DNA of 58,875 nt from a virus (Duplodnaviria > Caudoviricetes). Positions 2,999 to 18,693 of this stretch are shown here, piece after piece. Position numbers and translations under genes: made by a program. Positions within the stretch are counted from its first letter, which is position 1, and every line of letters begins with the position of its first letter. Under the pieces are notes generated by a model. The model did not search any database. It worked only from the letters and a program-made list of their open reading frames with translations, and was not told the DNA's origin. The stretch spans positions 1 to 58,875 of the IMG/VR virus record IMGVR_UViG_3300044742_000342; one strand, given 5' to 3'.

Positions 2999-3180
2999 CA
3001 AGAGAAGAAGAACAGCGGCTCGTCGAGCAGATCGAATACTTTCGCCGTGACCGAGGACGTCCTAATCTGGACGAAAACGACGGTGATCGGATAGCGGATA
3101 TCATGAGAGAGTTGTTGACTCATGCTCGAACTCAAGCAGATCGCATCACAAAACTGGAGAGGGAGAGGGGGATCCTGTGA
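2995..3180 (+). CDS. Hypothetical protein
   Basis: ATGA/GTGA overlaps with both neighbours. Confidence 0.65.
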   Translation: MTREEEQRLVEQIEYFRRDRGRPNLDENDGDRIADIMRELLTHARTQADRITKLERERGIL

Positions 3181-3656: not shown

Positions 3657-4237
3657 CGCTCAACGTGCTCGAAGAAGTTCGCCGCGTCCATCTTGCCCAT
3701 AAGAATCAATGGGAGCACTGCACATGCTGTAGCATCGGGCATCTCGCCCATCACCATGTATTCGCAAGGGGCACCCTTCCCTGTCGTATACTATTCATCG
3801 GCATCGCCCCCGGCAAGACCGAGAACGTTATGGGCTTCCCGTTTGTAGGTAAGGCAGGACGGCTTCTTGATACATGGCTGATGCGAGCCTCTTTTAAGAT
3901 TGGCACAGATTTTCTTCAGTGCTACGCCATCACTAATCTCACCTTGTGCCGGCCAACGAATAAGTTGGGCGGAGCTAATCGCGATCCTACGGACGAGGAG
4001 ATACGAAACTGCTCGGGACGCCTAGCGGACTTCATCAAGGACATTGCTAAGCCCAAGGTTATCATCACGCTCGGGCGGATTCCTGAACACAACATCCCCG
4101 ACACCGGCCTACGGCAATTCGCCGTTATTCATCCAGCCGGAGTACTCCGCCGTGGCGGGGAGGGTTCAAAGAGTGATTTGGCAGCCTCTGATAAGCTAAC
4201 AGCGTTCTTGGAGAAGGAGTTTAGCAATGGCAATTAG
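3653..4237 (+). CDS. Uracil-DNA glycosylase, family 4 (Fe-S)
   Basis: CxxC, IGIAPGKTE...PFVGKAGRLL, TN-x3-CRP, NRDP, HPA; start set at the ATGA overlap at 3653. Confidence 0.9.
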   Translation: MTLNVLEEVRRVHLAHKNQWEHCTCCSIGHLAHHHVFARGTLPCRILFIGIAPGKTENVMGFPFVGKAGRLLDTWLMRASFKIGTDFLQCYAITNLTLCRPTNKLGGANRDPTDEEIRNCSGRLADFIKDIAKPKVIITLGRIPEHNIPDTGLRQFAVIHPAGVLRRGGEGSKSDLAASDKLTAFLEKEFSNGN

Positions 4238-5357
4238 CATTAAATCTGCCAAGAAGCCCACGCAGTTCTATCCGTGGAAGCTGGACCAGGCCAAAAGCAA
4301 GTGGAACCTATGGGAACACGGCGTGACCTCGAGCTTTCTAAACTGCTGGGTGGAGGACCGTGAACATGCCCGTAAGAACTACGTGGAAGGGTACAGAGGC
4401 GGGACAAATCTCGCTTTTGAGTATGGCACCTGCAATCACTGGATCCTGGAACAGACTTATGCCGACGGCATCTTCTGGGAGAGAATGCCCGTAACAGTGA
4501 TTGAGGCTCGACGGTACATGGAGATGAAGGTTAAGGAGTACCAACTCCTTTATGACAAAACACATCCCGTACAAACAGCCAAGGACCGCGACCGCCAGGA
4601 GCGTGTGTACGGACTTGCAGAAGCTGTAATGCCTTGGTATCTAATGCGGTGGGATGGAGATTTCACCGGCAATTACGCGCAGGGTAACAACACTGTCTCT
4701 CCCAGAGAATGGCTCACCCTCGAACAGGTTTTTAGATTCGACTACATCTATCCCGACGGCAAGCGGTGCCCGCTCCGTGGCAGGAGGGATGGAACATTCC
4801 TCGACAGCAGAAATGGTACGTGGGTCCTCGATACAAAGTGCCGTAGTGTCATTAAAGACGAGGAGGCTCTGGAGACATTGCAGTTCGATATCCAGCAGAT
4901 GCTTTATCTCTGGATTACCCATCTCGAGATGAAGCAGGCAAAGGAGTTGTCTCCGTGGCCTAAGGGTACGTTGATGAACATTATTCGTAGGCCTGGACTC
5001 CGCCAGGGTGTGAACGAGACACTTGGTGCATTCATCAATCGATGTAAACTTGATGTGGCTGGGGAAACCAAAGGCAAGGACAAGGCGACAGGAGAACATG
5101 TGCCTCGGCTTGATCACTACTTCGTTCGTAATGAGATGGTAGTGACACCCATGGAGCTTCTCGAGTGGAAACAAACTCAGCTCGACCCGATTATGCAGGG
5201 CGTGCGGATGTGGTGGGAGGGAACCTTCCCGCATTTTCTCAGTCCTGGTGCTCTCACCACGAAGTATGGTCCTAGCGGAATGTATCGAGCTATCGTGAAG
5301 AAGGATACAAGTACCTATGAGAAACGGGAACATGTCTTCCCAGAACTGGAGATCTAG
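4227..5357 (+). CDS. PD-(D/E)XK (Cas4/RecB-like) exonuclease
   Basis: GT-x-H-x-x-LE, GRRDG, VLDTK, Q-x-x-LY motifs; position next to the Sak4-like gene. Confidence 0.75.
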   Translation: MAISIKSAKKPTQFYPWKLDQAKSKWNLWEHGVTSSFLNCWVEDREHARKNYVEGYRGGTNLAFEYGTCNHWILEQTYADGIFWERMPVTVIEARRYMEMKVKEYQLLYDKTHPVQTAKDRDRQERVYGLAEAVMPWYLMRWDGDFTGNYAQGNNTVSPREWLTLEQVFRFDYIYPDGKRCPLRGRRDGTFLDSRNGTWVLDTKCRSVIKDEEALETLQFDIQQMLYLWITHLEMKQAKELSPWPKGTLMNIIRRPGLRQGVNETLGAFINRCKLDVAGETKGKDKATGEHVPRLDHYFVRNEMVVTPMELLEWKQTQLDPIMQGVRMWWEGTFPHFLSPGALTTKYGPSGMYRAIVKKDTSTYEKREHVFPELEI

Positions 5358-5359
5358 CA

Positions 5360-6286
5360 ATGCCTCAGATGAAAACGACCTTCAGGCTGCCTACGCCGAT
5401 TATTGGCAAAGCTGTCGGCGCTAACGGAGCTCCAACGATAGTTAAGGCGGTGGCTCCTGTTATTGCAAGGCTAGAGCTACCGCTCGAGCCTACAGTACGG
5501 AGTGACGATATTAATGACTACTCCTTCCTCCTTCATGGAGAAAAGAAAATCGGCAAGAGCTCCTTCTCCACAATACCCGATCAGCCGGGAGAACGGGTGC
5601 TCCAGCTTACATTTGATCCTGTTCGCCCAGGCCTTGAGCTCATCCAGAGGCATATGCCTAATTGGACTGTCTTTACACAGTGGATTGTACGACTCGAGCA
5701 GGCTGCCAAGGAAGGAGACTTCCCTTACAAGAGAGTTGTGATTGACGGGGCGGACATTATGTACACCCGGTGCCAGACATGGTCCTGTACAAAGCTGGGT
5801 ATCCAGCACCCATCTGACGAGGGCTTTGCAAAGGGATGGCATCTAGTATCAGATACCTTTGCAGCATGGGTGGATCGGATACTGGCTTTACCGTGCGGTG
5901 TATGGTTCATCTCACACAGTGAATGGAAGGAGATTGACACACGTACTCCAGGCGTGAAACAGACTAAACTCGTACCTCTTATTAGCGGAAAGGGAGAGGA
6001 GATCATGAATGGGCGAGTGGACGGTTGGCTCGCCTATGTGTATGTGGAAAAGAAGCGTGCCCTGATTATTCTCGGCGATGAACGGACAGGAGCTGGGCAC
6101 GACTGTAAGGGACACTTCCTCACGCCCACCGGGGAGCGTGTGGCAGAGATTCCTATGGGGGATAGTGAAGAGGAGGCGTACTATAACTTCGTGCAGGCCT
6201 TTAACAATCAACAGACCTTCACGCATGTGGGTGGCAACATCGCTGCCCACTTCAAGAAGCCGAGGATCGTGATCAAGAAGAAGTAA
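5360..6286 (+). CDS. Sak4-like / AAA_24 ATPase (ssDNA annealing)
   Basis: Walker A GEKKIGKS, VVID, GFAKGW, FISH. Confidence 0.8.
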   Translation: MPQMKTTFRLPTPIIGKAVGANGAPTIVKAVAPVIARLELPLEPTVRSDDINDYSFLLHGEKKIGKSSFSTIPDQPGERVLQLTFDPVRPGLELIQRHMPNWTVFTQWIVRLEQAAKEGDFPYKRVVIDGADIMYTRCQTWSCTKLGIQHPSDEGFAKGWHLVSDTFAAWVDRILALPCGVWFISHSEWKEIDTRTPGVKQTKLVPLISGKGEEIMNGRVDGWLAYVYVEKKRALIILGDERTGAGHDCKGHFLTPTGERVAEIPMGDSEEEAYYNFVQAFNNQQTFTHVGGNIAAHFKKPRIVIKKK

Positions 6287-6319
6287 TCCATTTGAGGCTC
6301 AGCCTCAGGAGATCGTACC

Positions 6320-7222
6320 ATGGCTACTGTATCAAAGCCTGCTGTTCCGACCCGTCCTGCTATTGCCAAACCCGCAGTTGCAGCTCCCGCCATTCCCAGG
6401 CCCGCCCCCGCACCTGCGCGGCCAGCCCCTGCCAAACCCGCCCCTGCTCGTTCTGCAGCCCCTCCTGGCCGTCCGGCAGCGGCGCGCACCACGACAGCGG
6501 CCCCACCTGCCGCCAATGGACTGGATGCCCGCCTCACCGCCATGCGAGCTGCATGGGATAAGAACAAGGAGGCTAGTAAGAACCTCAGCAATTTCGGTAT
6601 CAAGGTCGAAGATGGCCCCTACGTAACCAAGCTCACCGGCGCGGACATTAAAGACACGCCTAAGTGGCTCGGTTGTATCTGGCATTTCACGGTTATCGAA
6701 GGGGATCAGACCGGCGAAGTGATTGACGTGTTGGATGACCTCGGCGACGAAGAGCGCATCGTTCACTTCCAGAAAAACCTCCGGCGCATGGGAGTAGAAG
6801 TGGACGACTTCAATCCGGAAGAAGTACCCAGCATTCTCGAGCAACTCATCGAGGCTGCGCCGGCAGTTCGAATCGTCGTGGGCACATCAAGGAAGACAGG
6901 TTCCCGCTGGGCGAACATTGACATGCTCGTGGACACGTCCGAACCGATGGAGCCTACGGAGCCTGCCGCTGCTGAGGAACCCGCAGCTGAAGGAGCTGAG
7001 CCCACTGAACCTACCGAGCCTACTGAACCCACCGAACCCTCGGAAGAGACGGCCGAGCTCAAGCTCGACGATCATGTCAGCTTCCGTATTAGCGGCGTGG
7101 CGAAGATCGGCAAGGTAAAGAAGTTTAACGACGACGGCAGCGTAAACCTCTTCATCAAGGAAGAAGGCAGAGTTGTCAAGTGCGCCGCCGAGGACATCGA
7201 GGCCCTAGCAGAAGTTGGTTGA
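6320..7222 (+). CDS. Putative ssDNA-binding protein with Pro/Ala-rich N-terminus, EPT repeats and C-terminal SH3/KOW-like domain
   Basis: DGPY OB-fold-like core; acidic linker; position after Sak4-like gene. Confidence 0.6.
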   Translation: MATVSKPAVPTRPAIAKPAVAAPAIPRPAPAPARPAPAKPAPARSAAPPGRPAAARTTTAAPPAANGLDARLTAMRAAWDKNKEASKNLSNFGIKVEDGPYVTKLTGADIKDTPKWLGCIWHFTVIEGDQTGEVIDVLDDLGDEERIVHFQKNLRRMGVEVDDFNPEEVPSILEQLIEAAPAVRIVVGTSRKTGSRWANIDMLVDTSEPMEPTEPAAAEEPAAEGAEPTEPTEPTEPTEPSEETAELKLDDHVSFRISGVAKIGKVKKFNDDGSVNLFIKEEGRVVKCAAEDIEALAEVG

Positions 7223-7250
7223 TCTCCAGCAAAGGGGAGACATCCAGGGA

Positions 7251-7272
7251 CCTGTTCTGTAACCAGGACAGG
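7251..7272 (+). terminator. Intergenic hairpin with TAAC loop
   Basis: CCTGTTCTG-TAAC-CAGGACAGG; no U-tract, so terminator function is uncertain. Confidence 0.4.
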
Positions 7273-7293
7273 CCTCCTTAAAGGAGATCAACT

Positions 7294-7854
7294 ATGACTT
7301 CGCCTTACAAGTTCTATCTTGCTGCCCCTTTCTTCAACCCCGCTCAGGCGCGGATGGTGGAACGGATTGAGAGTCTCTTTGCCCAGAAAGGCGTGGATTT
7401 GTTCAGCCCTCGACAAACTGATCACAATCGAAAAAAGGAGCTAAATGATCAGGATGCCATCGAGATCTTCTCAAATAATGTGGCTGGCGTGAAGACATGC
7501 AGCCATATGTTGGCTGTCCTGGACTGGGCTAACCTACCGGAGATCGAGATATGGACCCTTAAGCACACGCTAATCAGCACATGCGTCGCCCCGCCCCATG
7601 TGCAAACCGAGAAACTTGGCCAACCACTCAACCTGCCGGACACAGGCACTGTCTGGGAAATGGGCGCGGCCTTTGTTCTGGAAAAACCCATCATCGGATT
7701 CACCCTACGTAAGCCCGGCGACAAGGTGAACATCATGCTTACACAGTGCTTGCGCGGTGTGATCTACGGCTTCGACGATCTAATCAATTTTCTTGGCATT
7801 GCTGGTAAAATTGATATGTCATATGCCCAGCTGGGCGTCTGGAAACACCGATGA
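7294..7854 (+). CDS. Nucleoside 2-deoxyribosyltransferase / nucleotide N-glycosidase family protein
   Basis: YLAAPFF, FSPR, DTGTVWEMGAA, KPI motifs. Confidence 0.85.
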   Translation: MTSPYKFYLAAPFFNPAQARMVERIESLFAQKGVDLFSPRQTDHNRKKELNDQDAIEIFSNNVAGVKTCSHMLAVLDWANLPEIEIWTLKHTLISTCVAPPHVQTEKLGQPLNLPDTGTVWEMGAAFVLEKPIIGFTLRKPGDKVNIMLTQCLRGVIYGFDDLINFLGIAGKIDMSYAQLGVWKHR

Positions 7855-8474
7855 ATCTTAACATGCGAGAACTCCTCAACGGCGATATCGTACGACTTCG
7901 GTATGTGTACCGGTACAGCACATCCCGCGTTAGCCACCCGGAGACCGTGGCTGAGCATATGTACTTTGTGGCCTTGTATTCTCTGATGATCAGTAAGTGG
8001 GTACAGACCAACACAACTCTCCGTCCGCTTATAAATGAAGTGCTGAGCAAGGCTATTTTGCACGACATGGAAGAAGCCCGGTCCGGCGATTTCCCCCGAC
8101 CCTTCAAGCACTCCAGCAAGAGACTTCGAACAATGTTGGACGCTGCCAGCCGTGAGGCGATAGAACAAATCATAGGCAAGCTGATGCCTGTCTCTGGGAA
8201 AGAAGAGCATGTGGACAACAATCGCTTGTTTGTCGAGGACTGGGCTAACGCCAAGAATGACAGCCTTGAGGGTAGGATTGTGGAGTTTGCTGACTTCCTC
8301 TCTGTTCTCAGCTTCATGATCGAGGAGGGCTGTGCCAACGGACGTAAGTCAATTGCCCGACATGTGTCGGACATGAGATCCTACTGTGACAACTTTGACG
8401 AGCAGGAGTACGATTTTATTCGCCCCCTTGTGAACCAGGTGGGTGAATTGATGCTGGAAACTTTTGGGAGTTAA
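7851..8474 (+). CDS. HD-domain 5'-deoxynucleotidase (YfbR-like)
   Basis: RY...ETVAEH, ILHDMEEARSGDFPRPFK, AD motifs. Confidence 0.87.
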   Translation: MNLNMRELLNGDIVRLRYVYRYSTSRVSHPETVAEHMYFVALYSLMISKWVQTNTTLRPLINEVLSKAILHDMEEARSGDFPRPFKHSSKRLRTMLDAASREAIEQIIGKLMPVSGKEEHVDNNRLFVEDWANAKNDSLEGRIVEFADFLSVLSFMIEEGCANGRKSIARHVSDMRSYCDNFDEQEYDFIRPLVNQVGELMLETFGS

Positions 8475-8475
8475 T

Positions 8476-8868
8476 ATGGTAGGCAAAGAATTCACAAATC
8501 CTCTTGGGCTGTTCCATGCCGACGGGTCCTTAGACCCTGATAGGAAACAACCTCCTCTTCCCGCTGCCTCGAAAATGGATTCTCCTGCAGTTCAGGAATT
8601 AGAGATGAATGTAGAATCAACTCTTCTCCAGAGGAGGGCGCAGTACGGTGAAACACCATTTACGCAGGAGACTGATGCCGAGATATGGCACGGCTTATTG
8701 CAGAGGCACTTCCAAATCAAGTTGCCGCCGCTGTCTCCGTATATGGTGCCTCTCATGATGACAGCCATTAAGATCGCCAGAGCAGCGGGTCCTTTTCCTC
8801 TTAATGAGGACGACTATGTAGACGGCATCGGCTACCTCACGATTGCCAGAAAGTGCAGGGACAAATGA
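8476..8868 (+). CDS. DUF6378-like helical nucleotide-metabolism protein
   Basis: R-x-x-QYG, AEIW, MM-x-x-x-K-x-AR, D-x-x-D-x-x-GY pattern. Confidence 0.65.
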   Translation: MVGKEFTNPLGLFHADGSLDPDRKQPPLPAASKMDSPAVQELEMNVESTLLQRRAQYGETPFTQETDAEIWHGLLQRHFQIKLPPLSPYMVPLMMTAIKIARAAGPFPLNEDDYVDGIGYLTIARKCRDK

Positions 8869-9593
8869 AGATCCTCCTAACAGGAGCCAGCTACGGGCTT
8901 GGAAAGCATCTGCGCGATGATTTCCTAAAAGCCGGGCACCGCGTAACGGGAATAGGGATTGAGGGACCAGATGTTGTGTGTGACTTTACCAATTTCTGCC
9001 AGCCAGGAAGGTCACAGGAAATTCTGAATGTAATCGCCGAGCGAGGTCCGTACGACATTGTGATCAACAATGCCGGCACTATGCGGCTGAGCTGGTTTAA
9101 GCACTACAAACAGCAGGACCTGATGGAAAGCCTGTATGTGAATCTGGTAGCACCCATCATGATCATGCAGCGGGTATACCTTGAGCAGATCTTTCTGTCC
9201 CCTCCATTTGGAGGCTTCTGGCGGTTCGTGAATATCACGTCTATGGCCGTCAAGCAGCCCGGCCGCGCCTGCGTGGGTTATAATGCCAGTAAGGCTGGGC
9301 TGGAATGTGCTGTACGAGGGCTGGCCCGCGAATTGGCTAACAATGCTTTTATTCTAAGCTCAGTGGCTCCGTGTATCATCGAAGGTACAGCTATGCAAGA
9401 ACGAGGTATGCTCCACCTCATAGGAGCTCGAGGGATGACGCCCACTGAGGCGGAAGCCTATCAAACCTCAAACCCCCTAGGGCGACGCGCTTCTCTGGAG
9501 GAGATAGCTCGAGTGGTAAAATTTGCGGCTTTTGAGTTGCCTCAGGCTATGTCCGGTACAACGCTCTATGTACCGGCAGCAACGGGAGTTTGA
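8865..9593 (+). CDS. Short-chain dehydrogenase/reductase (SDR)
   Basis: TGASYGLG, NNAG, NITS, YNASK catalytic motif, PLGR. Confidence 0.92.
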   Translation: MKILLTGASYGLGKHLRDDFLKAGHRVTGIGIEGPDVVCDFTNFCQPGRSQEILNVIAERGPYDIVINNAGTMRLSWFKHYKQQDLMESLYVNLVAPIMIMQRVYLEQIFLSPPFGGFWRFVNITSMAVKQPGRACVGYNASKAGLECAVRGLARELANNAFILSSVAPCIIEGTAMQERGMLHLIGARGMTPTEAEAYQTSNPLGRRASLEEIARVVKFAAFELPQAMSGTTLYVPAATGV

Positions 9594-9594
9594 C

Positions 9595-9777
9595 ATGACG
9601 GACCGAGAAAAACTTCAGCTCGAGGACCTGCTCAAGATTGCCGAGGAGGATGACTCTCCGCTCAACGACTGGGAGAAAGAATTCCTTGAGGCGCTGGAGA
9701 GCAGGAGCCACTTCACGATGACCGAGAAACAGGCTAATGTTTTCGAGCGTCTAGTCGCCAAGCATTTAAAGGACTAA
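9595..9777 (+). CDS. Hypothetical protein
   Basis: GGGAG-like RBS; LNDWEKEFL...TEKQ pattern typical of small phage proteins. Confidence 0.65.
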   Translation: MTDREKLQLEDLLKIAEEDDSPLNDWEKEFLEALESRSHFTMTEKQANVFERLVAKHLKD

Positions 9778-9778
9778 C

Positions 9779-10897
9779 ATGAGTCATAAAACAACAGTGC
9801 GGTTATTGAGCTGGACAGCCAATCCGATCGAGACCATTTACGCTGAGTGGGTACAGAGTCGAACCCAGGAACCTGTACCTAATCCCAGTGAATTACATCT
9901 GAAGATTGCTCACGAGAAAATGGACCAAAAAATCGCCGGAGTACCACCCGAGTTGGAGGCAAAAATTCTGGACGTATTCGAGAAGGTTGTGGCAATGAAG
10001 ATGCCGCTCGGTGAGTCCATCAGTTTCGTATTCCTCCTAGAGCATGTCCCTGTCGCCCTCCGCGAACAGCTGGTTCGCCATCGAATAGGGCATAAGTTCG
10101 GCGACCGGCTGGGGGCAGATATCATCCCCGATCTTGCTGGCGGAAGCTCGTTCTGGAGCCAGACCACCCGGATCGTGGACATGGGTACTTTTGCTACCGA
10201 CGGGGAGTACCTGACGCCGACATGGCTAGAGGAAAACGGACATGCAGATATGCCAGGATACACCAAAAAGGACGGTCAAGTTGTACCCGATGGTGAATCT
10301 CGTATAGGCTTTGCTGGTAACAGACCGGGAACAATTCAAGAGTTCTACGACAAGCAGATGCTCTGGATCCAAGCAGCCTATCGCCGATTAGTAAAGGCGG
10401 GGATGCCGCTAGAGGATGCCCGGAATATCTTGCCCGTTGCTATGATGCATCGCATGACCTGGACGACCAATCTGCAAGCACTTATGCATGTGCTTTCCAG
10501 AAGATCCTGCTGGCTCGCTCAACTGGGAATGTGGGAGCCTGTCGTGCATGGCATCGTAGAGGAACTGGCAAATCGAATTCATCCTACATTCCGGCGATTG
10601 ATTGATCCGCCTTGCATCAGTGCGGACGGCAATTTTCAAGCCTGCGCCTTCGTGAAGGAGAACGAGGAGATCGCTGGGAATGCAGCAGGGATAGGCAGGG
10701 GCGAATACCCGCCCTGCTCCCTTTGGGTCAATAGGGAGTTTCTACCCAAACATACCCTTCATGCTGGACTGCTGCCTAACCCGGAAAAAGCTGTTGCGGG
10801 TACTGGAAGAGTCCCCCGCTACGAGAAGATGATGACCAAGTACGAGAAGCTATGGGCGCGTGACCCCCGAACAGGGGAGAGAAAGGTGGTGGCATAA
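9779..10897 (+). CDS. thyX: Flavin-dependent thymidylate synthase ThyX-like protein (variant)
   Basis: QLVRHR, SFWSQTTR, EDARNILP, NLQAL-x5-RR-x-C-x-x-AQ. Confidence 0.8.
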   Translation: MSHKTTVRLLSWTANPIETIYAEWVQSRTQEPVPNPSELHLKIAHEKMDQKIAGVPPELEAKILDVFEKVVAMKMPLGESISFVFLLEHVPVALREQLVRHRIGHKFGDRLGADIIPDLAGGSSFWSQTTRIVDMGTFATDGEYLTPTWLEENGHADMPGYTKKDGQVVPDGESRIGFAGNRPGTIQEFYDKQMLWIQAAYRRLVKAGMPLEDARNILPVAMMHRMTWTTNLQALMHVLSRRSCWLAQLGMWEPVVHGIVEELANRIHPTFRRLIDPPCISADGNFQACAFVKENEEIAGNAAGIGRGEYPPCSLWVNREFLPKHTLHAGLLPNPEKAVAGTGRVPRYEKMMTKYEKLWARDPRTGERKVVA

Positions 10898-11136
10898 TGT
10901 CTACTTCAGCCGGAACAAAACGTCATCGAGAGCTTATTGTAAAGTTCTCTGAGCTAGTTGTTAGAGAGCTGAACTCCGACGATCCAGCCAAGAATGGACA
11001 GGAGTTTTTTAGTCGGGCCAAGTCCTTCATGGGTGACGACTACAACTCGCTACTCGGGATGTCGCTGAGAGACATCACTGAAGCTGTGACTATCAGAGAC
11101 CTGGCGGATATAGCTGGTCAGATCAATATGGTGTAG
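10897..11136 (+). CDS. Hypothetical protein
   Basis: TAATG coupling to the upstream stop. Confidence 0.6.
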   Translation: MSTSAGTKRHRELIVKFSELVVRELNSDDPAKNGQEFFSRAKSFMGDDYNSLLGMSLRDITEAVTIRDLADIAGQINMV

Positions 11137-11189
11137 CTATGCTGATGAAATGAAAGCTGTCGAGCAGCCGATCAGCTAGGAGCTAGGGA

Positions 11190-13430
11190 ATGGCGTTCTT
11201 TATCAACAAGCCGAAGCACTTTATCGATGGCAAGCGAATTGCTTTCGATACTGAAACTACAGGCCTTGATCTCTGGCACAACGACAAGCCCTTCGCCTTC
11301 AGCTTTACAAATGAAGCACTCGAGGATGCCTACTTTGAGTTTGACGTAAATCCACTTACGCGTGAGCCTATCATCCAGCCTAACGTTCTGAACAAGATCG
11401 CCAGGCTATTAGAGGATCCTGCCATAACGAAGGTCTGCCACAACCGCAAGTTCGACGAGCGAGCAATGGATCGTGGTTATGGCATTAAGCTTCTAGGCCC
11501 CCGCGCCGACACAATGATCAAGGCCTTCGTATGTAATACGAGGGAGCCTACGCTCGGCCTAAAGTTCCTCGGGGACAAGTATTGTGCCATCAGCAAGCAG
11601 GACCAGCAGGACCTCAAGAAGGCTGTAGTGAGTATGCGCCGCCGGGGAGCCAAAGTGGGGTGGAACATCAAGTTCGATATCGTGAAACAGCCAGACGGGA
11701 CAATCAAGAAAAAAGCCCAGACTGCCGCGGACTACTGGCTCCCTGGCACGATCGCCCGATGCTATCCCGTTATGCTCAAGCCCCTCGAGGACCGCGACTT
11801 GTACGCGGGGTTATGCGGCCTCTACGCCGTAGGCGATACCCAGCGGACAATGCTCCTGGACATGATGTATGAACCCATCTTGGACGAGCTGCACGTTAGG
11901 CATATCTACGAGGATATGGAACTCGCCCTGTACCCGGTGATTTATGACATGGAGACTCGCGGCCCGTGCACTGACACGGCTGTTCTCGATAGGCAAATGC
12001 ATGATTCCAAAGCAGTTATGGACGAAATCTATCCGCGCCTGGCCGCTGTCGCTGGCGAGGGGTTTCGCCCCTCAGCTGCCGACGACGTAAGGAGACTCTT
12101 CTATGAAGTCCTCGAATTCCCGATCAAGAAGTGGACGAAGGGCGGCAAAGAAACTGTCAAGGACAGAAAAACTGGAGAAATCCGGGCAAAAACCCAAGCC
12201 GAAATCGACGCCAAAAAACAACCCGCCGTCGATAAGTTCGTTATCCTTGACCATATCGATGATCCAGTTGTTAGAGACCTTGCCATCTGGAAGGGTAATA
12301 ATACGGCGTATACTGGATTCTTCTCTAAGTTCCGCCGCCAAAGTATTCCTGATACGTTTGGTGGACAGACAGCTCTGCATTGTGAATATAGGCAAGTCGG
12401 AGGAGACCAAAAGGGCGACCGTGGAGGAGTTGCAACGGGCAGGCTCTCTTCAGCTAATCCTAACTTGCAGAATGTGATGACGCCTGAGAACACGATGGCC
12501 GTGCATCCCCTGCATGTCCGCCCCGCTTTCATCCCTAGACCTGGAATGTGTTGGCTGTGCATTGACTACGAGGGTATGGAAGTATTCGTATATGCTATTG
12601 TATCCGGCGAACCCACAATGATGACCGCTATCAATGCCGGGCGTAGCATTCACGATGAGATGACCAATACCGTCTGGGGCGGCAAGGACAATGAGGAGGC
12701 TCTGAAACAGGCCATCCGTGCCCTGTCCCTGGACGGTACTGGTATGCATACGTCCGAGGGGGTGGACACTTTCTGGAGAGAGTTTGGCATTACCGACAAG
12801 AATGTACTCACACTGACTCTTCCCAGAAAGTACCAGCTCGCCGACATCTGGTTGAGCCGATATGACTACGATCAAGTCCGAGCCCAGGCAGGTGTGGGCA
12901 GGAAGAACTCCAAAACAACTATCAAGTCCCTAACCTTCCTAAAGATCTACTGCGGCGGAGCTGAGAAGGCCACCCTCCTTTTGAAGTGCCCAATCGACGA
13001 AGCCCAGCGAACCCTGGACTTGTACGATACAAAGTTTCCTCGTATCAATGAGTACAATTACGAGCTGATCGCCGAGGCCAAAGCCAACGGCTTTATCACC
13101 AGCCAGTGGGGTCGGCGACTGGAGATCAATCCGGACAAGCCCTATCAGGCTGTGAACTATATGATTCAAGGCTCTTCCGCGGACCTGATGAAGATGTCGC
13201 TGATTCGCCTTGACAAGTGGTACAAGGAATCCGGATTTAATGCGTACCTGCTTTTAACCATCCACGACGAGATCGTAACAGAACTCTCCTACGCCGAACT
13301 CACCAAGCCCTTTATCCGAGAGGCCTGTCGAATTATGTGTGACACACAGGGGGTCTTCCCAATTCCAATGAAGGTCGAAGCGAAGGTCGTAACCGACAAT
13401 TGGAGCATTAAGAGAAAGGTCGCTGTGTAA
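11190..13430 (+). CDS. polA: Family A DNA polymerase with 3'-5' exonuclease
   Basis: FDTETTG, HNRKFD, ATGRLSSANPNLQN, motif A IDYEGME, IQGSSAD, motif C TIHDE. Confidence 0.95.
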   Translation: MAFFINKPKHFIDGKRIAFDTETTGLDLWHNDKPFAFSFTNEALEDAYFEFDVNPLTREPIIQPNVLNKIARLLEDPAITKVCHNRKFDERAMDRGYGIKLLGPRADTMIKAFVCNTREPTLGLKFLGDKYCAISKQDQQDLKKAVVSMRRRGAKVGWNIKFDIVKQPDGTIKKKAQTAADYWLPGTIARCYPVMLKPLEDRDLYAGLCGLYAVGDTQRTMLLDMMYEPILDELHVRHIYEDMELALYPVIYDMETRGPCTDTAVLDRQMHDSKAVMDEIYPRLAAVAGEGFRPSAADDVRRLFYEVLEFPIKKWTKGGKETVKDRKTGEIRAKTQAEIDAKKQPAVDKFVILDHIDDPVVRDLAIWKGNNTAYTGFFSKFRRQSIPDTFGGQTALHCEYRQVGGDQKGDRGGVATGRLSSANPNLQNVMTPENTMAVHPLHVRPAFIPRPGMCWLCIDYEGMEVFVYAIVSGEPTMMTAINAGRSIHDEMTNTVWGGKDNEEALKQAIRALSLDGTGMHTSEGVDTFWREFGITDKNVLTLTLPRKYQLADIWLSRYDYDQVRAQAGVGRKNSKTTIKSLTFLKIYCGGAEKATLLLKCPIDEAQRTLDLYDTKFPRINEYNYELIAEAKANGFITSQWGRRLEINPDKPYQAVNYMIQGSSADLMKMSLIRLDKWYKESGFNAYLLLTIHDEIVTELSYAELTKPFIREACRIMCDTQGVFPIPMKVEAKVVTDNWSIKRKVAV

Positions 13431-13669
13431 TGATAACCCTGAACGAGTACCAGAAGCTGATGATCAAACATAGTAGTACGCGATTAAATGCCGGGTCAAT
13501 ACGGCAGGAGATGATGCAAACAATCAACGCTCTCGGCTTTGCCAAGAACGACGAGGAGCTGCGCGATTCTCTGGGGGAGATCCTGAGATTGGTCGCTGTC
13601 TATGCAGGCGGCAAGTTGATTGCATTGGACGACGTCGTGGACAAGAGCGTCAAGAAGGCCCAGGCCTAG
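13430..13669 (+). CDS. Degenerate MazG-like helical protein
   Basis: LNEYQ...LGEIL...LDDVV resembles MazG, but the acidic catalytic pattern is incomplete. Confidence 0.4.
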   Translation: MITLNEYQKLMIKHSSTRLNAGSIRQEMMQTINALGFAKNDEELRDSLGEILRLVAVYAGGKLIALDDVVDKSVKKAQA

Positions 13670-13677
13670 GAGTCCTA

Positions 13678-14049
13678 ATGCAGTTGTCGCCGCGTAAAGC
13701 TGCTGAAAGAACTAGAAAGCGTAAGGAAATCGGCATTTATGCCGAAGCCCATCCAGGTACATGCCAAAAGGTCCTGGCTATAAAGTTCGATGTCTCTCAG
13801 CAGCAGGTGTCGATCGCCTTAAGACAGCATGGAATCAGAACTCGCAAGGTACGTAAGGACGCCATGACGGTGAAGCCGGACTCATTTGTGCAGTGCTTCA
13901 TCTGTTTACACATAGTGGACAAGCGAACGGGCTGGAAGCTCTGTAATCGGTATGCTCACCCGATGTGTGTCAAGATCATTGCCGAGTCAGTTGTTGAGCA
14001 AGTTGAAATGAAACGAGCAAAGGAGCTACATGGAAAGGCCCCCGGATAA
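13678..14049 (+). CDS. HTH DNA-binding protein with C-terminal Zn-binding motif
   Basis: QKVLAIKFDVSQQQVSIAL HTH; CFIC...HPMC. Confidence 0.65.
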   Translation: MQLSPRKAAERTRKRKEIGIYAEAHPGTCQKVLAIKFDVSQQQVSIALRQHGIRTRKVRKDAMTVKPDSFVQCFICLHIVDKRTGWKLCNRYAHPMCVKIIAESVVEQVEMKRAKELHGKAPG

Positions 14050-16108
14050 ACTTAAACCTTTCCTTTGTCATGGGCTGGAACCAATTGACGTGGCAGGTAA
14101 CAACACCATCGCCAATTGTCCAATTTGTGGCAGAGAAGGTCATTTCTATGTCAACAACGAGACCGGGCAATGGGATTGTAAGTCCTGCCTAGCCAATGGC
14201 AATGTTCATGCATTCCTACATCTGGTGATAAAGGGGCATCTTGCTGCCACAACCGAGGATCAATACAATTGGCTGGCTTCAGTCCGTGGTATTCCACCGG
14301 GCATATTCCGGTCCAACGACGTGTGCTTTAATGGGGTTGAATGGCTAATTCCCTGCTATAATGAGAATGGCACAATCATGGACATCCGCCGTTGGGACGG
14401 CCAGAATCGGCTGATGAGCACGGACGGCTGCAACCTCAATGTGTTTCGCTACCGAGAATTGTATAAATGCGGTTACCACCAGCGGGTGTGGATATGTGAG
14501 GGCGAATGGGATTGCATGGCGATGCAATGGATGCTCAAGAAGGTCCATCGCTTTCTTGACGTCCCTGTGGGCATCCCCGGCGCAGGGACATTTAAGGACA
14601 AGTGGTGTGAAGCCTTCCGTGGTAAGCACTCCACCTTCTGCTATGATAATGACGAACCAGGGGACAAGGGGTCCCTCCGCGCCTCGGCGAAGCTCTTAGG
14701 TACCGCCGCTAAGATAGACTTTCTCTGCTGGCCTAAGACACGACCCAATGGCTATGACGTAAGGGATTTTGTCTGCGAATCTCTGGGGAAAAATGAGAGT
14801 GCCGACAAGGCGTTTGAATTATTTCAGAAGCTGATCAAGCCAAAACATCGGTTAGACACATCTTCTCCAGAAGGTGGCGCGAAGCCCGTAGGAATGAAGC
14901 CCGCTGGATTCAAGGAGGTTGTCGAGGAGTTCAAGAAGTGGATTGAAGTGGACTCTGAATTTGAGACAGCCCTGGCTGTGGCTTTGGCTGTGTGTCTGTC
15001 TAACGAGGTACCGGGTGAGCCCTTGTGGTTTTATCTTGTGGCTCCGCCCGGTGGAGGCAAGAATGTAATCCTGATGGCTTTACAAGAATCTCACCGTACC
15101 GTATTCCGTAGCTCGCTTACCCCCGCCAGCTTGGTGAGCGGATTTAATGTCCATCCTGATCCCAGTCTGCTACCGCACCTTAACGGCAGGACAGCTATAT
15201 TCAAGGACGGTACCGAACTTCTCGCTCTGCATCCGGATGCTCGGAAAGAAGCTTATGGCATTCTGCGAGGCGCGTATGACGGTAGGGTGACACGATCGTG
15301 GGGCAATGGCGTAAAACGGGACTACAAGATTCATTTTAACATGCTCGTGGGCATCACCCCTGCTATCCATGGGGACAACCAAGCTTCGATGGGTGAGCGA
15401 TTCCTCAAGTTCAATATGTCCCAAAATGGTGTGGACGAAAGGGACAAGATTCGAATGGCTATCAAACAAATAACCAAGGAAGTCAAGATGGAGCAAGATC
15501 TAATTGGCGTATGTCGCCGGTTCATGTTGCAGGATGTAGACTACGTCAAGCTTCGTCCTATCAGCACCTCGTACGAGGAAAGGATTATTTCTCTCTCACA
15601 GCTTGTGAGCATCCTTAGAGCTCAGGTAGACCGAGCAGGTTATGGGCGGAATGATATTCAGTACAGGCCTGTGCGAGAGGTAGGTTCCCGAGTGGCTAAG
15701 GTACTTATAAAGCTGGCGAGGATGCTCTGCTATGTGTATGATGTGCCTTGTGTAACAGAATTCATATACGGAATAATCAAGCGAATAGCCATTGATACCT
15801 GTACAGGCTATCATGTGGACATTGTCCGGGTAATGGCCCGTGCCCCAGACGGCATGAGTCGAGAACAGATAGCCACCTACTCCAAGATCCCCCTTGGCAT
15901 GATCTATACAAAGCTGGATGACCTGGAGCAGCTCAACATCGTGGAAAAGAAGAAGACGGACAGGCCAAAGGGTTACCGAGGGATGCTCCCTACGATATGG
16001 GTACTAACCAAAACAATGGCCGGTTTGTGGAATAAATCCGTGGCTATAAGGGTTACAGCGCCGCCCCGCGCAGCCCAAACAGGCTCAACAAGCCGGCAGG
16101 GGGGATAG
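14030..16108 (+). CDS. Primase-helicase (Zn finger + TOPRIM + P-loop ATPase + wHTH)
   Basis: CPIC...CKSC, CEGEWD, CYDNDEPG, APPGGGK. Confidence 0.9.
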   Translation: MERPPDKLKPFLCHGLEPIDVAGNNTIANCPICGREGHFYVNNETGQWDCKSCLANGNVHAFLHLVIKGHLAATTEDQYNWLASVRGIPPGIFRSNDVCFNGVEWLIPCYNENGTIMDIRRWDGQNRLMSTDGCNLNVFRYRELYKCGYHQRVWICEGEWDCMAMQWMLKKVHRFLDVPVGIPGAGTFKDKWCEAFRGKHSTFCYDNDEPGDKGSLRASAKLLGTAAKIDFLCWPKTRPNGYDVRDFVCESLGKNESADKAFELFQKLIKPKHRLDTSSPEGGAKPVGMKPAGFKEVVEEFKKWIEVDSEFETALAVALAVCLSNEVPGEPLWFYLVAPPGGGKNVILMALQESHRTVFRSSLTPASLVSGFNVHPDPSLLPHLNGRTAIFKDGTELLALHPDARKEAYGILRGAYDGRVTRSWGNGVKRDYKIHFNMLVGITPAIHGDNQASMGERFLKFNMSQNGVDERDKIRMAIKQITKEVKMEQDLIGVCRRFMLQDVDYVKLRPISTSYEERIISLSQLVSILRAQVDRAGYGRNDIQYRPVREVGSRVAKVLIKLARMLCYVYDVPCVTEFIYGIIKRIAIDTCTGYHVDIVRVMARAPDGMSREQIATYSKIPLGMIYTKLDDLEQLNIVEKKKTDRPKGYRGMLPTIWVLTKTMAGLWNKSVAIRVTAPPRAAQTGSTSRQGG

Positions 16109-16218
16109 AAATGAATATAAGCGTTTTTGAGGGCCAGCCGAAGACTTCCTTCGCCTGCGCTAGTAGGAACCTCTATAACGCATTGCATAGCCCCTTTTTC
16201 TAGTTTGGAGGCTCAAAA

Positions 16219-16497
16219 ATGAGTATACAGGTTCGCAGGGCTCTGAAAAAGTCCAAAATCCAGATGATGCTGGAAGAACGAGTACGTTCCTCCAATCCAC
16301 TTGAGGTATGCTGGCCGGGCCAATTAGCAGGTGGACGGCGACTGATCGGGCAGTGGTGGAGGGTATGGATAGAGGGGCGAACTTGTCAGTACTTTGCGGG
16401 TTATGTCTCTGGTAAGCAGGAGCAGGCCATTGCGCATGCTCGTAAGTACTGGCCGGAGAGTGTAGGCAAATTGGTTCTCACTCCGAGGAATGCATGA
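16219..16497 (+). CDS. Hypothetical protein (paralog A)
   Basis: GGAGG RBS; similar to the next ORF. Confidence 0.65.
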   Translation: MSIQVRRALKKSKIQMMLEERVRSSNPLEVCWPGQLAGGRRLIGQWWRVWIEGRTCQYFAGYVSGKQEQAIAHARKYWPESVGKLVLTPRNA

Positions 16498-16748
16498 ACT
16501 CTTCTTCCCCAGAAAGTCCGTCAGCCCTGGACATCATGTCTGGAACCTACAAAGGGAAGTACTGCGAGGTTTGGCTAGAGGGGACGCACTTTCTGGGAGT
16601 GATGCTTGGATCGGCAAAAGATGTAAAACATAAAGCAGCAGAACTATGGCCGCACCTGGTGGGGCGATTTGTTGTGATTCAAAGGGGTGTTAGACCCATT
16701 CGATTTCCACCCAGCCCGGCAGCCCGGCCACGGTCACGAACCCGCTGA
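16494..16748 (+). CDS. Hypothetical protein (paralog B)
   Basis: ATGA overlap; VW-x-EG...A-x-x-x-WP-x-x-VG shared with paralog A. Confidence 0.6.
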   Translation: MNSSSPESPSALDIMSGTYKGKYCEVWLEGTHFLGVMLGSAKDVKHKAAELWPHLVGRFVVIQRGVRPIRFPPSPAARPRSRTR

Positions 16749-18678
16749 CGGGGTTGGTTGCTCGCAATCGGAACTGGCGTTTGGCATCGCTGTCCACCAG
16801 GTAGCGAATCTCCGGGCTCACCTGGGTCTGGTCCACATTGCCGTCGGTGACCGCCATGGTGCACAGCACGTTGCTGTCCTTGTCGAGGATTTCCAGGGTG
16901 ATGGCCTTGCCGGACTGGCTGGCCAGGGCTTTCCTGATGATCGTGAACTTTCGGACGGTGCAGCCGCGAGGGACCTTGCGCATGTGAGGCACGGTCGGCG
17001 TGCCCGATCCGGTGGTTTTTACTTCGGCTGTCGTCGTGGGCGTGGGCAGGCCATCGTCAACCGTCGTCGGCGCAAGCCGCCACGTCATCACCTTGACGCC
17101 CGGCGCCAGCGATGTGTTGCCGTAGTGGGCGTTCAGGAACACGTCCACCGGCTCCATAGCCGACCCGTTCCAGCAGCCCCGAACCTCGGCGCGGGCGTAG
17201 GCGCTGAGGATCTCGCCGTTGGTGGGGAAATCCCAGCTCAGCTGATCGTAGAACTGTCCGAACAGTTCGCTGTCGGCGATAAGCGTAGAAAGGTGGTAGG
17301 GCAGCACGTAATCCGATCCGCCGACCCCGCTGAACTTGAAGCCCAGCAGCGGCGACAGGCGGGAGTCCCGGATGGTCAGGTGACCCCGTCTGTGCATGCG
17401 GATGGCGTCCGGCACCAGCACGTTAGAGGTCACCGTGGTGAGGTTGCCCTGCATCGTCACGGTGGCCAGTGCGTTCAGCTCCAACAAGCGGCCGTAGGTG
17501 CGGGCATCGGTGGCGACGACGTTGGCGGGATCATCGCCCGGCGCCCGCAGTTCCGGGGCGATGGCGAGAAACTCGAAGTTGCCGTTGTTGGTGCCGATCA
17601 GGCTGCCGTCTCCCGCTCCCCCTTCGACGATCTTGGTCAAGAGCCCGCCGGGCATGCAGATCATGTTCGCACAGTCCAGCTTCAGCTTGCCCCCGGCCTG
17701 GATGAGCATCCCCACGCCCTGCTTCCACACGACAGCGTCCTCAGCGGAGAACGTGGCGGGCCAGTAGGTGTCGCAGGTCACGTTGTTGGCGTCGAAGGCG
17801 GTGATCAGGCGTGTGCCCTGGCCCGGCACGGTCACCAGATGAAGCCCATCGGCCATCGCCGCCGTGAACGTTCCGCCCGGCGAGTTGAGGTTGGTGGTTC
17901 CTGCAGTGGCCGCTGCATCACTGATCGACAGGACCGTCTCCCCGCCCTCAACGTAGAACTCATTGTCGCGCAGCCAGATGTTGACCGCCTGCGGGTTGCC
18001 GTTCATCCAAAGTCCGACCTGACCCGGTCGCACCACCCACTTCACGCGGTTAAATTTGACCTCCGAGACGTTGACAGCGCCAGCAAGTCGCACGGCCGCT
18101 GCGAAGTTTTCAAACGCCACGTCCTCGAAGATGAAGTTCTGAACTCGTCCTCCAGAGCCCGGCTGCTCCAGGTTGAAGCCGCGCTCGACGCGGTTGGCGG
18201 ACACGAATCGGACGTTGCGGATCGCGCTGAACGCGAACAGGTCCTGGTTATCGCACAGCCATTCATCCGTGTTCCAGTCACAGATGATCTCTGCCGATTC
18301 CGGCCCGTCAGAGGTGATGACCAGGCCTCGCAGGCTGACGTCGCCGGTCGTGAGCGTGGGGGTCAAAGCATTGGGGGAGGTGAGGCGGTAGCGTGATCCG
18401 CTTTTGAGATAGAGCGACGGGATGAATCCGCGGAATCCGCTGTCATAGTACGGCGAGGAAACCTTAGCGGCTTCAATGGCGACCAGGGCGGCGGCGAAGG
18501 CTGCATCGGCGGAGGCTGCGCCGGTGGGGTCGGCGTCGAAGTCGTTGACGTTGCAGCTCCCGTTCTGCACCCGGCGCGAGAGCTGGCCGAAGTTGTCCAT
18601 CAGCAGTGACCCGCCTGCGCCGGTGGACGCGGGCGAGGGGAATTGTAACGTGTTACGGGTGATAATGGTTGGCATCAA
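16690..18678 (-). CDS. Tail spike / receptor-binding protein (beta-helix)
   Basis: NVNDFDADPTG..AFAAA pectate-lyase-3-like start; last gene of the tail module; GGAG RBS. Confidence 0.7.
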   Translation of the reverse strand: MMPTIITRNTLQFPSPASTGAGGSLLMDNFGQLSRRVQNGSCNVNDFDADPTGAASADAAFAAALVAIEAAKVSSPYYDSGFRGFIPSLYLKSGSRYRLTSPNALTPTLTTGDVSLRGLVITSDGPESAEIICDWNTDEWLCDNQDLFAFSAIRNVRFVSANRVERGFNLEQPGSGGRVQNFIFEDVAFENFAAAVRLAGAVNVSEVKFNRVKWVVRPGQVGLWMNGNPQAVNIWLRDNEFYVEGGETVLSISDAAATAGTTNLNSPGGTFTAAMADGLHLVTVPGQGTRLITAFDANNVTCDTYWPATFSAEDAVVWKQGVGMLIQAGGKLKLDCANMICMPGGLLTKIVEGGAGDGSLIGTNNGNFEFLAIAPELRAPGDDPANVVATDARTYGRLLELNALATVTMQGNLTTVTSNVLVPDAIRMHRRGHLTIRDSRLSPLLGFKFSGVGGSDYVLPYHLSTLIADSELFGQFYDQLSWDFPTNGEILSAYARAEVRGCWNGSAMEPVDVFLNAHYGNTSLAPGVKVMTWRLAPTTVDDGLPTPTTTAEVKTTGSGTPTVPHMRKVPRGCTVRKFTIIRKALASQSGKAITLEILDKDSNVLCTMAVTDGNVDQTQVSPEIRYLVDSDAKRQFRLRATNPVSGFVTVAGLPGWVEIEWV

Positions 18679-18693
18679 ACTACTCCTTCGGCC

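Follow-up and report, generated by a model that had tools for sequence, protein, structure and literature searches.

A translationally coupled nucleotide-pool cassette with a long, four-cysteine ThyX-like protein in an uncultured soil phage, and its possible role in making a C5-modified pyrimidine

Background

The locus described here raises the question of whether a set of phage nucleotide-metabolism genes placed ahead of a DNA polymerase supplies ordinary thymidylate or prepares an unusual pyrimidine before the genome is copied. It lies at positions 7294-13669 of the IMG/VR virus record IMGVR_UViG_3300044742_000342, a whole viral record of 58,875 bases with a completeness rating of 95% (hereafter the window), and it is a translationally coupled nucleotide-pool operon within the replication module of an uncultured soil phage of about 59 kb. 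Its main genes encode a nucleoside 2-deoxyribosyltransferase-family protein (NDT), an HD phosphohydrolase (HD), a DUF6378 protein, a classical short-chain dehydrogenase/reductase (SDR), a long ThyX-like flavoenzyme and a family-A DNA polymerase (PolA), and an earlier reading of the sequence alone (the original prediction) had seen in this set a candidate novel base-modification cassette. Our own reading, tentative and held at slightly under an even chance, is that the cassette produces a deoxyuridylate modified at C5 ahead of replication, either in place of dTMP or beside it. This is predicted because the ThyX-like family is atypical and conserved, was not found in cellular genomes, lies in variable, pathway-like neighbourhoods, has paralogues, and shows kinship to genes of phages with hypermodified thymidine. 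In the following, this evidence is set out together with the rival explanations, the most serious of which is a plain thymidylate synthase with unusual decorations.

Organisation of the cassette

All six domains named in the original prediction were recovered by Pfam and PHROG searches on the + strand, and the tight coupling that had been read from the open reading frames (ORFs) is real. Stop/start overlaps of the ATGA or TAATG type join NDT to HD, DUF6378 to SDR, ThyX to the 79-amino-acid (aa) ORF that follows it, and PolA to the 79-aa ORF behind it, while the other junctions are gaps of 1-2 nt and the sole larger gap (53 nt) precedes PolA. Two starts were placed downstream of the longest ORF: the likely ATG of DUF6378 (8476) lies 1 nt past the HD stop, and that of the SDR (8865) overlaps the DUF6378 stop. 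The features are listed below, the last two being context; presence is also given for 47 related IMG/VR loci recovered with the ThyX-like profile, many of them cut by contig ends.

7294-7854, + strand: NDT, 186 aa (PF05014 E 1.1e-16, in two stretches; phrog_7995 E 7e-21)
7851-8474, + strand: HD phosphohydrolase of the YfbR/OxsA/DatZ clade, 207 aa (PF12917 E 1.5e-17; phrog_7076 E 4e-19)
8464-8868, + strand: DUF6378 protein, ORF from TTG 8464 with the likely ATG start at 8476 (PF19905 E 2.1e-10)
8853-9593, + strand: classical SDR, ORF from GTG 8853 with the likely ATG start at 8865 (adh_short E 2.7e-20; phrog_3142 E 4e-25)
9595-9777, + strand: 60-aa ORF between the SDR and ThyX, without a credible Pfam or PHROG match (0 of 47 loci by tblastn)
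9779-10897, + strand: long ThyX-like flavoenzyme of the four-cysteine family, 372 aa (PF02511 E 2.6e-19)
10897-11136, + strand: 79-aa ORF whose start overlaps the ThyX stop, without a Pfam, PHROG or NCBIfam match (0 of 47 loci)
11190-13430, + strand: PolA with a 3'-5' exonuclease domain, 746 aa (PF00476 E 6.8e-46; PF01612 E 3.6e-14; phrog_17 E 5.5e-79)
13430-13669, + strand: 79-aa ORF, possibly a short MazG-like helical protein, without a Pfam, PHROG or NCBIfam match (0 of 47 loci)
3467-4237, + strand: UDG-superfamily protein (PF03167 E 8.8e-21; 8 of 47 loci)
14030-16108, + strand: primase/helicase-like protein closing the module, with weak Toprim and zinc-ribbon primase matches (29 of 47 loci, downstream of PolA)

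The replication module as a whole runs on the + strand from 1451 to 16108 and comprises, in order, a helicase, the UDG-superfamily protein, an exonuclease, an AAA_24 ATPase, a conserved 300-aa protein without a family match, the cassette, and the primase-like protein.

The ThyX-like protein and its family

The ThyX-like protein has the fold of a flavin-dependent thymidylate synthase. Its AF2 model (pLDDT 81) had only Thermotoga maritima ThyX structures as its best Foldseek folds (E 2e-8, probability 1.00, TM-score by target 0.66-0.70), and solved ThyX entries with formaldehyde and with an N5-carbinolamine flavin were among the matches. A profile built from 21 ThyX-like sequences reached solved ThyX chains in the PDB at E 1e-9 only, through the segment that holds the arginines aligned to R147 and R174; in the HMMER alignment to 3g4c it is R215 and R242 of the ThyX-like protein that fall on these two residues of the solved enzyme (the numbering offset of the T. 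maritima chain is 12, as checked against the titles of the E144R and R174K entries). Residue 80 matches His59 of T. maritima ThyX, and the His53 region was aligned by no tool. The likeness to T. maritima ThyX (TM0449) covers the fold, the RHR motif and the two arginines, whereas the solved enzyme has about 220 aa against 372 aa here, where two inserts and a C-terminal four-cysteine module are added.

The PF02511 match is stretched to 172 residues over 119 profile positions, and the score against TIGR02170, the NCBI thyX equivalog, is 60 bits for a cut-off of 87.9, with residues 199-249 as the only aligned part. What we take to be the ThyX motif, the contiguous signature RHRxxSxxxxSxR, does not occur as such: RHR is present, but the S-x-x-S-Q-x-x-R block comes only after an insert of about 18 aa. 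A second insert and the four-cysteine module follow.

Most of the family shares this architecture. Among 199 proteins of 270-470 aa (kept from 214 retrieved), all four cysteines (C244, C279, C289 and C313 in the window's protein) are present in 194, an insert of at least 14 residues after RHR in 190, and an intact RHR in 174, while the arginines are nearly invariant (R131 in 199 of 199; R100, R215 and R242 in 198 each). On the assumption that R131 is the counterpart of R90 in the solved enzyme, the position of Tyr91 is taken by Val or Ile in 150 of the 199. An exhaustive profile search of 1.84 billion representatives (a 50%-identity library) returned 247 sequences at E<=1e-30, 868 at E<=1e-10 and 3780 at E<=1e-3, and a word-indexed search gave 90 homologues, all of them metagenomic or unnamed records. 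In the genomes of 185,579 prokaryote species, two-pattern scans did not detect the family. Twenty-six cultured-phage records match the protein and just one of them, Listeria phage LIS04 (24% identity), covers at least 80% of it. In IMG/VR, a scan with the single protein detected no relative; the 47 loci were then found by an alignment-based scan. Our literature search located no published description of the four-cysteine family or of its neighbourhoods.

As the arginines expected for dUMP binding are retained, the protein could be an ordinary thymidylate synthase that holds a structural metal site. It may also be no more than the thymidylate synthase of this phage, since it is the sole Thy1 gene in the window and in three of the four related near-complete genomes, and PF00303 (ThyA) has no match in the window or in any of these four. 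Under this explanation, whose chance we put somewhat below that of a modified deoxyuridylate, the long ThyX would be a genuine flavin-dependent thymidylate synthase, its insert and cysteines would serve the structure, HD and NDT either recycle host deoxynucleotides into dTMP (from any dNMP to the deoxynucleoside and on to deoxyuridine) or clear host DNA breakdown products, and the SDR, DUF6378 and the small ORFs are accessory, the virion DNA being canonical save for methylation by the methylase encoded at 458-1267. The Thy1 fold, RHR and the arginines all agree with it. It leaves unexplained the sub-threshold equivalog score, the near-invariance of the cysteine module and of the insert across 199 members, the failure of the two-pattern scan to find the family in any cellular genome, and the existence, in four loci, of a second and divergent paralogue.

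These two-copy loci (L028, L029, L036 and L046) were recognised from ORF maps. Of the two copies, the second and upstream one has diverged much further, with no post-RHR insert and with H-R where RHR would stand, but it keeps the four cysteines. The two copies of such a pair (for instance L046:6413-7294 and L046:10007-10963) are separated by a NADAR protein (not in L029), a radical-SAM/SPASM protein and small ORFs. Inteins were seen in 6 of the 10 long ThyX-like homologues scanned (P0124, P0126, P0127, P0136, P0192 and P0195), five of them with HNH endonucleases, and P0192 seems to hold two; their presence suggests that the gene matters to these phages. Fused forms gave no clue to function, for no informative additional domain turned up in any of these 10 proteins. 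In a maximum-likelihood tree built from 24 ThyX-like proteins, 10 of the 21 inner branches stayed open, and SP15_130, kaset and LIS04 were placed on very long branches; its join of LIS04 with SP-15 is weak (77/79) and flagged as long-branch, and nothing was drawn from it.

Recurrence of the cassette in related viral loci

By tblastn, the window's proteins were found in the 47 loci in the same order and in the following numbers: NDT in 21, HD in 24, DUF6378 in 18, SDR in 6, PolA in 27 and the primase in 29, figures that overstate independence through near-duplicates with identical gene strings (L009/L010, L011/L012 and L026/L027). The loci of the window's kind (class A) follow the string helicase-(UDG)-exonuclease-AAA_24-conserved protein-NDT-HD-(DUF6378)-(SDR)-ThyX-PolA-primase, with proteins 25-45% identical to those of the window. 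The SDR always lies inside the interval from NDT to PolA and immediately downstream of DUF6378 wherever both are found, and it occurs in few loci, so that NDT-HD-ThyX-PolA forms the core, with DUF6378-SDR as an optional sub-module. The original prediction had named ThyX, SDR, NDT and HD as the neighbourhood to look for in viral databases; the order NDT-HD-(DUF6378)-ThyX-PolA does recur in IMG/VR, and it was the SDR that turned out not to be part of the core.

Such an arrangement exceeds chance. The possibility that there is no functional unit at all, and that the genes are adjacent merely from the tight packing of phage early and replication genes, is the least probable of the explanations considered here: gene overlap is the norm in phages, and the small ORFs and the MazG-like ORF were recovered in none of the 47 loci, yet the order NDT-HD-(DUF6378)-ThyX-PolA is kept though the proteins are only 25-45% identical.

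What varies around the core are genes of a tailoring type. In 10 class A loci, a radical-SAM/SPASM protein (PF04055 E 1e-15, PF13186 E 2e-9) stands between the HD/DUF6378 genes and ThyX, mostly directly upstream of the latter; elsewhere ThyX is accompanied by a SAM-dependent methyltransferase, a dCMP deaminase or a NADAR protein. A second group (class B), with contigs of mostly 53-116 kb where they are long enough to judge, flanks ThyX with a MazG-NT5C fusion (pyrophosphohydrolase plus 5'-deoxynucleotidase), a class-III aminotransferase and a small P-loop protein; the aminotransferase is of the omega type (PF00202 E 3e-70) and stays below every NCBIfam equivalog cut-off. ThyX sits between MazG-NT5C and the aminotransferase in most class B loci (L009, L010, L018, L019, L021, L022, L025, L031, L034, L037 and others; for instance L019:9112-13331), and the wider class B context includes a weak FAD/NAD-binding protein, CobT-like VWA and AAA_5 proteins, sigma-factor-like genes and RecA. 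Within 3 kb of ThyX, a radical-SAM/SPASM protein, methyltransferase, class-III aminotransferase or SDR was present in 30 of the 47 loci, an NDT, HD or MazG-NT5C in 36, and both kinds in 25, where three loci whose ThyX was missed by the ORF caller were scored as having none and the counts stand without a matched control on canonical ThyX genes. In some loci, a radical-SAM/SPASM protein, an aminotransferase or a methyltransferase near ThyX occurs together with an SDR. The recurrence of radical-SAM/SPASM, aminotransferase and MazG-NT5C neighbours is a further point that thymidylate supply and salvage leave unexplained.

Variable tailoring neighbours and the strong divergence from canonical ThyX would also suit an enzyme that acts on another substrate (dCMP or a ribonucleotide) or post-replicatively on DNA or RNA, with NDT and HD processing that product; NDT-family enzymes do pair with thymidylate-synthase-like enzymes in the pathways of nucleoside antibiotics and other nucleoside natural products. 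We consider this improbable. The family keeps the set of arginines typical of dUMP-binding ThyX, the gene is always in the replication module by PolA or nucleotide hydrolases, and nothing points to cytosine or RNA.

The accompanying enzymes

NDT scores 61.5 bits against PF05014 (cut-off 28.8). In an alignment of 15 sequences, the N-terminal A-P-F and the block D116-x-G-T-x-x-E122-x-G are invariant (D116, G118, T119, E122 and G124), the glutamate of the block being, as we take it, the catalytic one, and the protein carries an internal insert of about 35 aa. Its profile matched only solved nucleoside deoxyribosyltransferases in the PDB (6evs E 9e-23, 1s2d E 1e-13), with no entry named as a dNMP N-glycosidase among the listed matches (E<=0.01). 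Because of this exclusive match to solved nucleoside deoxyribosyltransferases, NDT probably acts on deoxynucleosides.

HD scores 64.3 bits against PF12917 (cut-off 25.9), and H36, H71-D72, E75, D80 and D148 are invariant in 17 sequences, which include the metal-binding residues of the H...HD...D pattern (H36, H71, D72 and D148). In the PDB, its profile came closest to Lin2634 (1e-18) and YfbR (1e-17), followed by OxsA (2e-12) and DatZ (6zpa, 1e-8), while the cut-off of 122 bits for NF003009, the YfbR 5'-deoxynucleotidase equivalog, was not reached (31.5 bits).

DUF6378 was modelled by AF2 as four helices (pLDDT 79). It had no PDB sequence match at E<=1 and no fold match (best Foldseek E 1.7), and its ESM Atlas hits were DUF6378 clusters only, mostly viral. 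Two candidate identities were rejected: a MazG-like pyrophosphohydrolase is unsupported, a B. subtilis pyrophosphatase appearing just at rank 42 with a Foldseek E of 9.7, and the PHROG label 'phosphofructokinase' is backed by nothing else.

The SDR is intact, as the original prediction had it: what we take to be the glycine-rich NAD(P) motif, NNAG, the serine and YxxxK are visible in the translation, and adh_short scores 73 bits for a cut-off of 26.6. Only generic FabG-like matches were obtained in NCBIfam and the PDB, and no equivalog cut-off was reached.

Among cultured phages, PolA comes nearest to the polymerases of SP-10 and ViI-like phages, with identities of just 24-26%. The polymerase had been called a variant, which holds only in the sense that it is divergent, at no more than 26% identity to cultured phage polymerases; no sign of adaptation was seen. 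The 'degenerate MazG-like ORF' predicted downstream of it exists, and its MazG identity is an ESM Atlas lead only, which stays below the bars set for it (features 0.89 for a bar of 0.9; TM-score 0.85, below the naming bar).

Relatives in cultured phages

The closest cultured relatives of ThyX, HD and NDT are SP15-like phages, by sequence, and three phages of this group are reported to have hypermodified thymidine. HD matches 17 phage records, 12 of which belong to SP-15 (2), LIS04, Carin-5 and Rhizobium RHph phages (8). NDT matches four phage records, Carin-5 among them, and homologues occur in Lactobacillus phage PM411 and Geobacillus phage GR1; the last two may count for ordinary thymidylate supply. 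The accessible part of the Carin-5 paper reports hypermodified thymidine by liquid chromatography-mass spectrometry and groups Carin-5, SP-15, YerA41, PhiLo, RP13, RHph-TM30 and LiS04 by polymerase similarity, and the part of a 2026 NAR paper available to us names Carin-5, YerA41 and SP-15 as the three experimentally confirmed T-modified members.

Bacillus phage SP-15 is the most informative comparison. According to the available text of Kropinski et al. 2018, its DNA carries 5-(4',5'-dihydroxypentyl)uracil, with evidence for formation before DNA synthesis, genes 129 and 130 are among the candidate modification genes, and gp130, said to have 'no homologs', was hypothesised to be a hydroxymethyl-dUMP synthase; the title of another paper reports that dihydroxypentyluracil is labelled from ribose. 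In our literature search, no enzyme assignment for its synthesis was found beyond the 2018 hypothesis. SP-15 genes 127 to 130 encode an NDT, a small ORF, a FabG-like SDR and a Thy1 protein, the start of gene 130 overlapping the stop of gene 129, and a YfbR-like HD (gene 090) and a family-A polymerase (gene 109) lie in the same replication region; a Pfam scan confirmed the families of NDT, SDR, Thy1 and HD. Four Pfam families are thus shared and stand in the order of the window. There are differences: in SP-15 the NDT is a double-domain protein of 316 aa, the HD gene stands apart from the row, and the genome measures 222 kb; a further Thy1 (gp9) is encoded, besides a dCMP deaminase and a cluster of sugar genes (Kropinski et al. 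2018, available text).

This comparison also corrects one statement of the original prediction, namely that an SDR is not part of known base-modification pathways: SP-15, whose base is said to be made before replication, has an NDT-small ORF-SDR-Thy1 row. The kind of system is therefore known, as a phage nucleotide-pool cassette for a replaced pyrimidine, and the window's cassette is not categorically new, because SP-15 already shows an SDR beside a ThyX-like gene.

LIS04, an SP15-like Listeria phage that GenBank places under Thornevirus SP15, provides a link at the protein level. LIS04_124 is homologous to the family along its full length, C-terminal extension included (hhalign 99.9%, E 2.4e-32); two small ORFs separate its gene from an NDT gene upstream, and a PolA is encoded in the region as well. 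It differs in its low identity (24-27%), in R-S-K for RHR, in lacking the insert and in keeping one of the four cysteines, and against SP-15 gp130 it reaches E 0.002 only. In Carin-5, an HD homologue is found directly upstream of the polymerase; its 'ferredoxin oxidoreductase', which adjoins NDT, was considered as a counterpart and is related to neither the ThyX family nor the SDR.

The SDR matched 131 phage records by tblastn, including Wifcevirus, Serratia and Aeromonas phages, and the Wifcevirus case is instructive. Escherichia phage kaset (L052, 8839-11302) encodes ThyX, a polynucleotide kinase, a FabG-like SDR and a DNA polymerase in a row, so that ThyX and SDR lie one gene apart beside the polymerase, and its SDR matches that of the window by tblastn. 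Its ThyX differs in having canonical length and a full Thy1 match (281 aa, E 2.7e-30), and the 18.5-kb region around it carries no gene annotated as NDT or HD. The part of the BASEL paper on Wifcevirus that was accessible mentions no DNA modification. As the kaset block comes without a reported modification, a ThyX-SDR pair near a polymerase is by itself no signal of a modified base.

Comparison with other modification pathways

The absence of PurZ, TGT/DpdA and ThyA genes, as originally predicted, was borne out by searches with PF00709 (PurZ-type adenylosuccinate synthetase), PF01702 (TGT/DpdA) and PF00303, none of which had a match in the 58,875-base window. The cassette resembles the PurZ/DatZ/MazZ/DpoZ system in its logic of a synthase combined with hydrolases of canonical nucleotides and a dedicated PolA, and its HD falls into the DatZ clade (phrog_7076). 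It differs from that system in that there is no PurZ, the synthase is of the pyrimidine type, and the HD is nearer to YfbR, Lin2634 and OxsA than to DatZ.

Routes that start with a ThyA-type hydroxymethylase may share their logic with the cassette: carbon is transferred to C5 of dUMP before replication, dTTP is kept out, and the phage polymerase takes the analogue. They differ in using a ThyA, which the window lacks. In the available part of Lee et al. 2021, the routes to 5-hydroxymethyl-deoxyuridine (5-hmdU) and to thymidine hypermodification (SPO1, PhiW-14, M6 and ViI) are described as using classical ThyA-family enzymes, and flavin chemistry as passing through an exocyclic methylene that can be trapped by a nucleophile. 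No window ORF scanned was named as a 5-HMUDK kinase or an aGPT-Pplase, and no dedicated search was made for either.

Proposed pathway and its weighing

If the cassette does make a C5-modified deoxyuridylate, the steps may be as follows. HD would dephosphorylate a canonical deoxynucleotide, most simply dTMP or dTTP, and NDT would swap or remove the base at the nucleoside level (for instance, dT + uracil to dU + thymine), so that the two together could drain the thymidine pool and recycle deoxyribose into dU and then dUMP. The four-cysteine ThyX would then catalyse a flavin-mediated transfer of carbon to C5 of dUMP, with a 5-hydroxymethyl group or a longer substituent as the product and not a plain methyl. 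The SDR, perhaps with DUF6378, may trim or reduce the side chain, a step expected only in some relatives, and PolA next door would incorporate the product.

A wider and more doubtful proposal, which we judge to be on the unlikely side, is that the long four-cysteine ThyX proteins form a new, widespread phage family of flavin-dependent synthases that alkylate or hydroxymethylate dUMP at C5, possibly with a metal or Fe-S site. They would then correspond, on the ThyX side, to the ThyA-type hydroxymethylases and give rise to thymidine hypermodifications not yet described, with side chains finished by adjoining tailoring enzymes (the SDR here; radical-SAM/SPASM, omega-aminotransferase or methyltransferase elsewhere). 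Since ThyX chemistry can take carbon from an aldehyde, it might even be, as pure inference, that the variant condenses a sugar-derived aldehyde with dUMP, for example deoxyribose released via HD and NDT, which would account for the NDT-SDR-ThyX triad of SP-15 and its five-carbon side chain.

Several observations weigh against the prediction of a C5-modified deoxyuridylate. The first group concerns the comparison with cultured phages: neither pairwise nor profile comparison detected homology between the SDR and ThyX of the window and SP-15 gp129 and gp130 (E 0.12 and 0.058, hhalign probability 1.4%), NDT being the only member of that row to match (E 2e-5), the thymidylate synthase of Carin-5 is annotated as thyA and not as ThyX, the PolA, with its 746 aa, does not belong to the long UDG-fused polymerases of SP15-like phages, and the kaset row shows a similar block around a canonical ThyX. 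The second group concerns what else the pathway might be expected to contain: neither a dUTPase/dCTP-deaminase fold nor a dCMP deaminase was found in the window, and no dNMP kinase or glycosyltransferase was recognised among its larger ORFs scanned. The third concerns the ThyX-like protein itself, which retains the dUMP-type residues (R100, R131, R215 and R242) and is the only Thy1 protein of its genome in most of the near-complete relatives, the fourth of them (G004, L046) being the one with two. Finally, the rarity of the SDR, the duplicate strings and uncontrolled neighbour counts described above, and about 11 class A loci without any tailoring-type gene near ThyX all reduce the force of the neighbourhood argument.

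Part of this evidence counts directly for ordinary thymidylate supply and salvage, namely the single thymidylate-synthase-like gene of the window and of three near-complete relatives, the Wifcevirus ThyX-PNK-SDR row, the SDR confined to 6 of 47 loci, and the lack of a dUTPase, dCMP deaminase or recognised kinase in the window. In the same direction, phage T5 encodes a 5'-deoxynucleotidase although its DNA is canonical. The unusual pyrimidine of the original prediction is partly supported, in that the combination of a synthase, hydrolases and the phage's own polymerase fits such a route and the ThyX is atypical, while plain dTMP as the product is compatible with everything found.

Other features of the genome

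A contig from one soil-metagenome run in Logan spans positions 6000-12252 with 0 differences; this run is possibly the source sample, and the match is thus not independent. No RNA dataset was listed as containing the stretch, and the two DNA datasets listed are contigs only, possibly source samples, and carry no information on base modification. Comparison of the cassette DNA with 50,697 deposited phage records gave no match at the DNA level. The assembly of the stretch at ordinary depth speaks, if at all, only weakly against a very bulky modification of a kind that would block amplification.

Upstream of the replication module, a DNA N6/N4 methyltransferase is encoded at 458-1267 (+ strand; PF01555 E 6e-49), so that the phage methylates A or C regardless of any other modification. 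Far from the cassette, at 54278-54772 (+ strand), lies the gene of a 164-aa circularly permuted YpsA SLOG-family protein (PF12694 E 8e-22), whose YpsA-type fold is nucleotide-binding and related to LOG and NDT-type enzymes, and whose neighbours are otherwise unknown + strand genes; a protein with DUF2786 and DUF7168 domains is encoded at 55810-56547 (+ strand). The G+C content is 0.58-0.63 in 16001-22000 and 38001-48000, compared with 0.51-0.55 in the replication module. Two opposite-strand ORFs, each longer than 560 aa, overlap at 16687-18678, and one of them is presumably spurious.

Conclusions

A ThyX-type entry enzyme for a modified pyrimidine had previously just been hypothesised, for SP-15 (Kropinski et al. 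2018), the known routes starting from ThyA-type enzymes (Lee et al. 2021), as far as the available parts of these two papers go. Should the four-cysteine protein be a plain thymidylate synthase instead, the locus would be no more than an ordinary operon for nucleotide supply whose ThyX has odd decorations. If, as tentatively predicted here, these cassettes make non-thymine bases, a sizeable share of soil phages would have DNA chemistries hidden under the annotation 'thymidylate synthase', new enzymes for the synthesis of C5-modified nucleotides would be at hand, and the 50-year-old question of how SP-15 synthesises its dihydroxypentyluracil would become testable.

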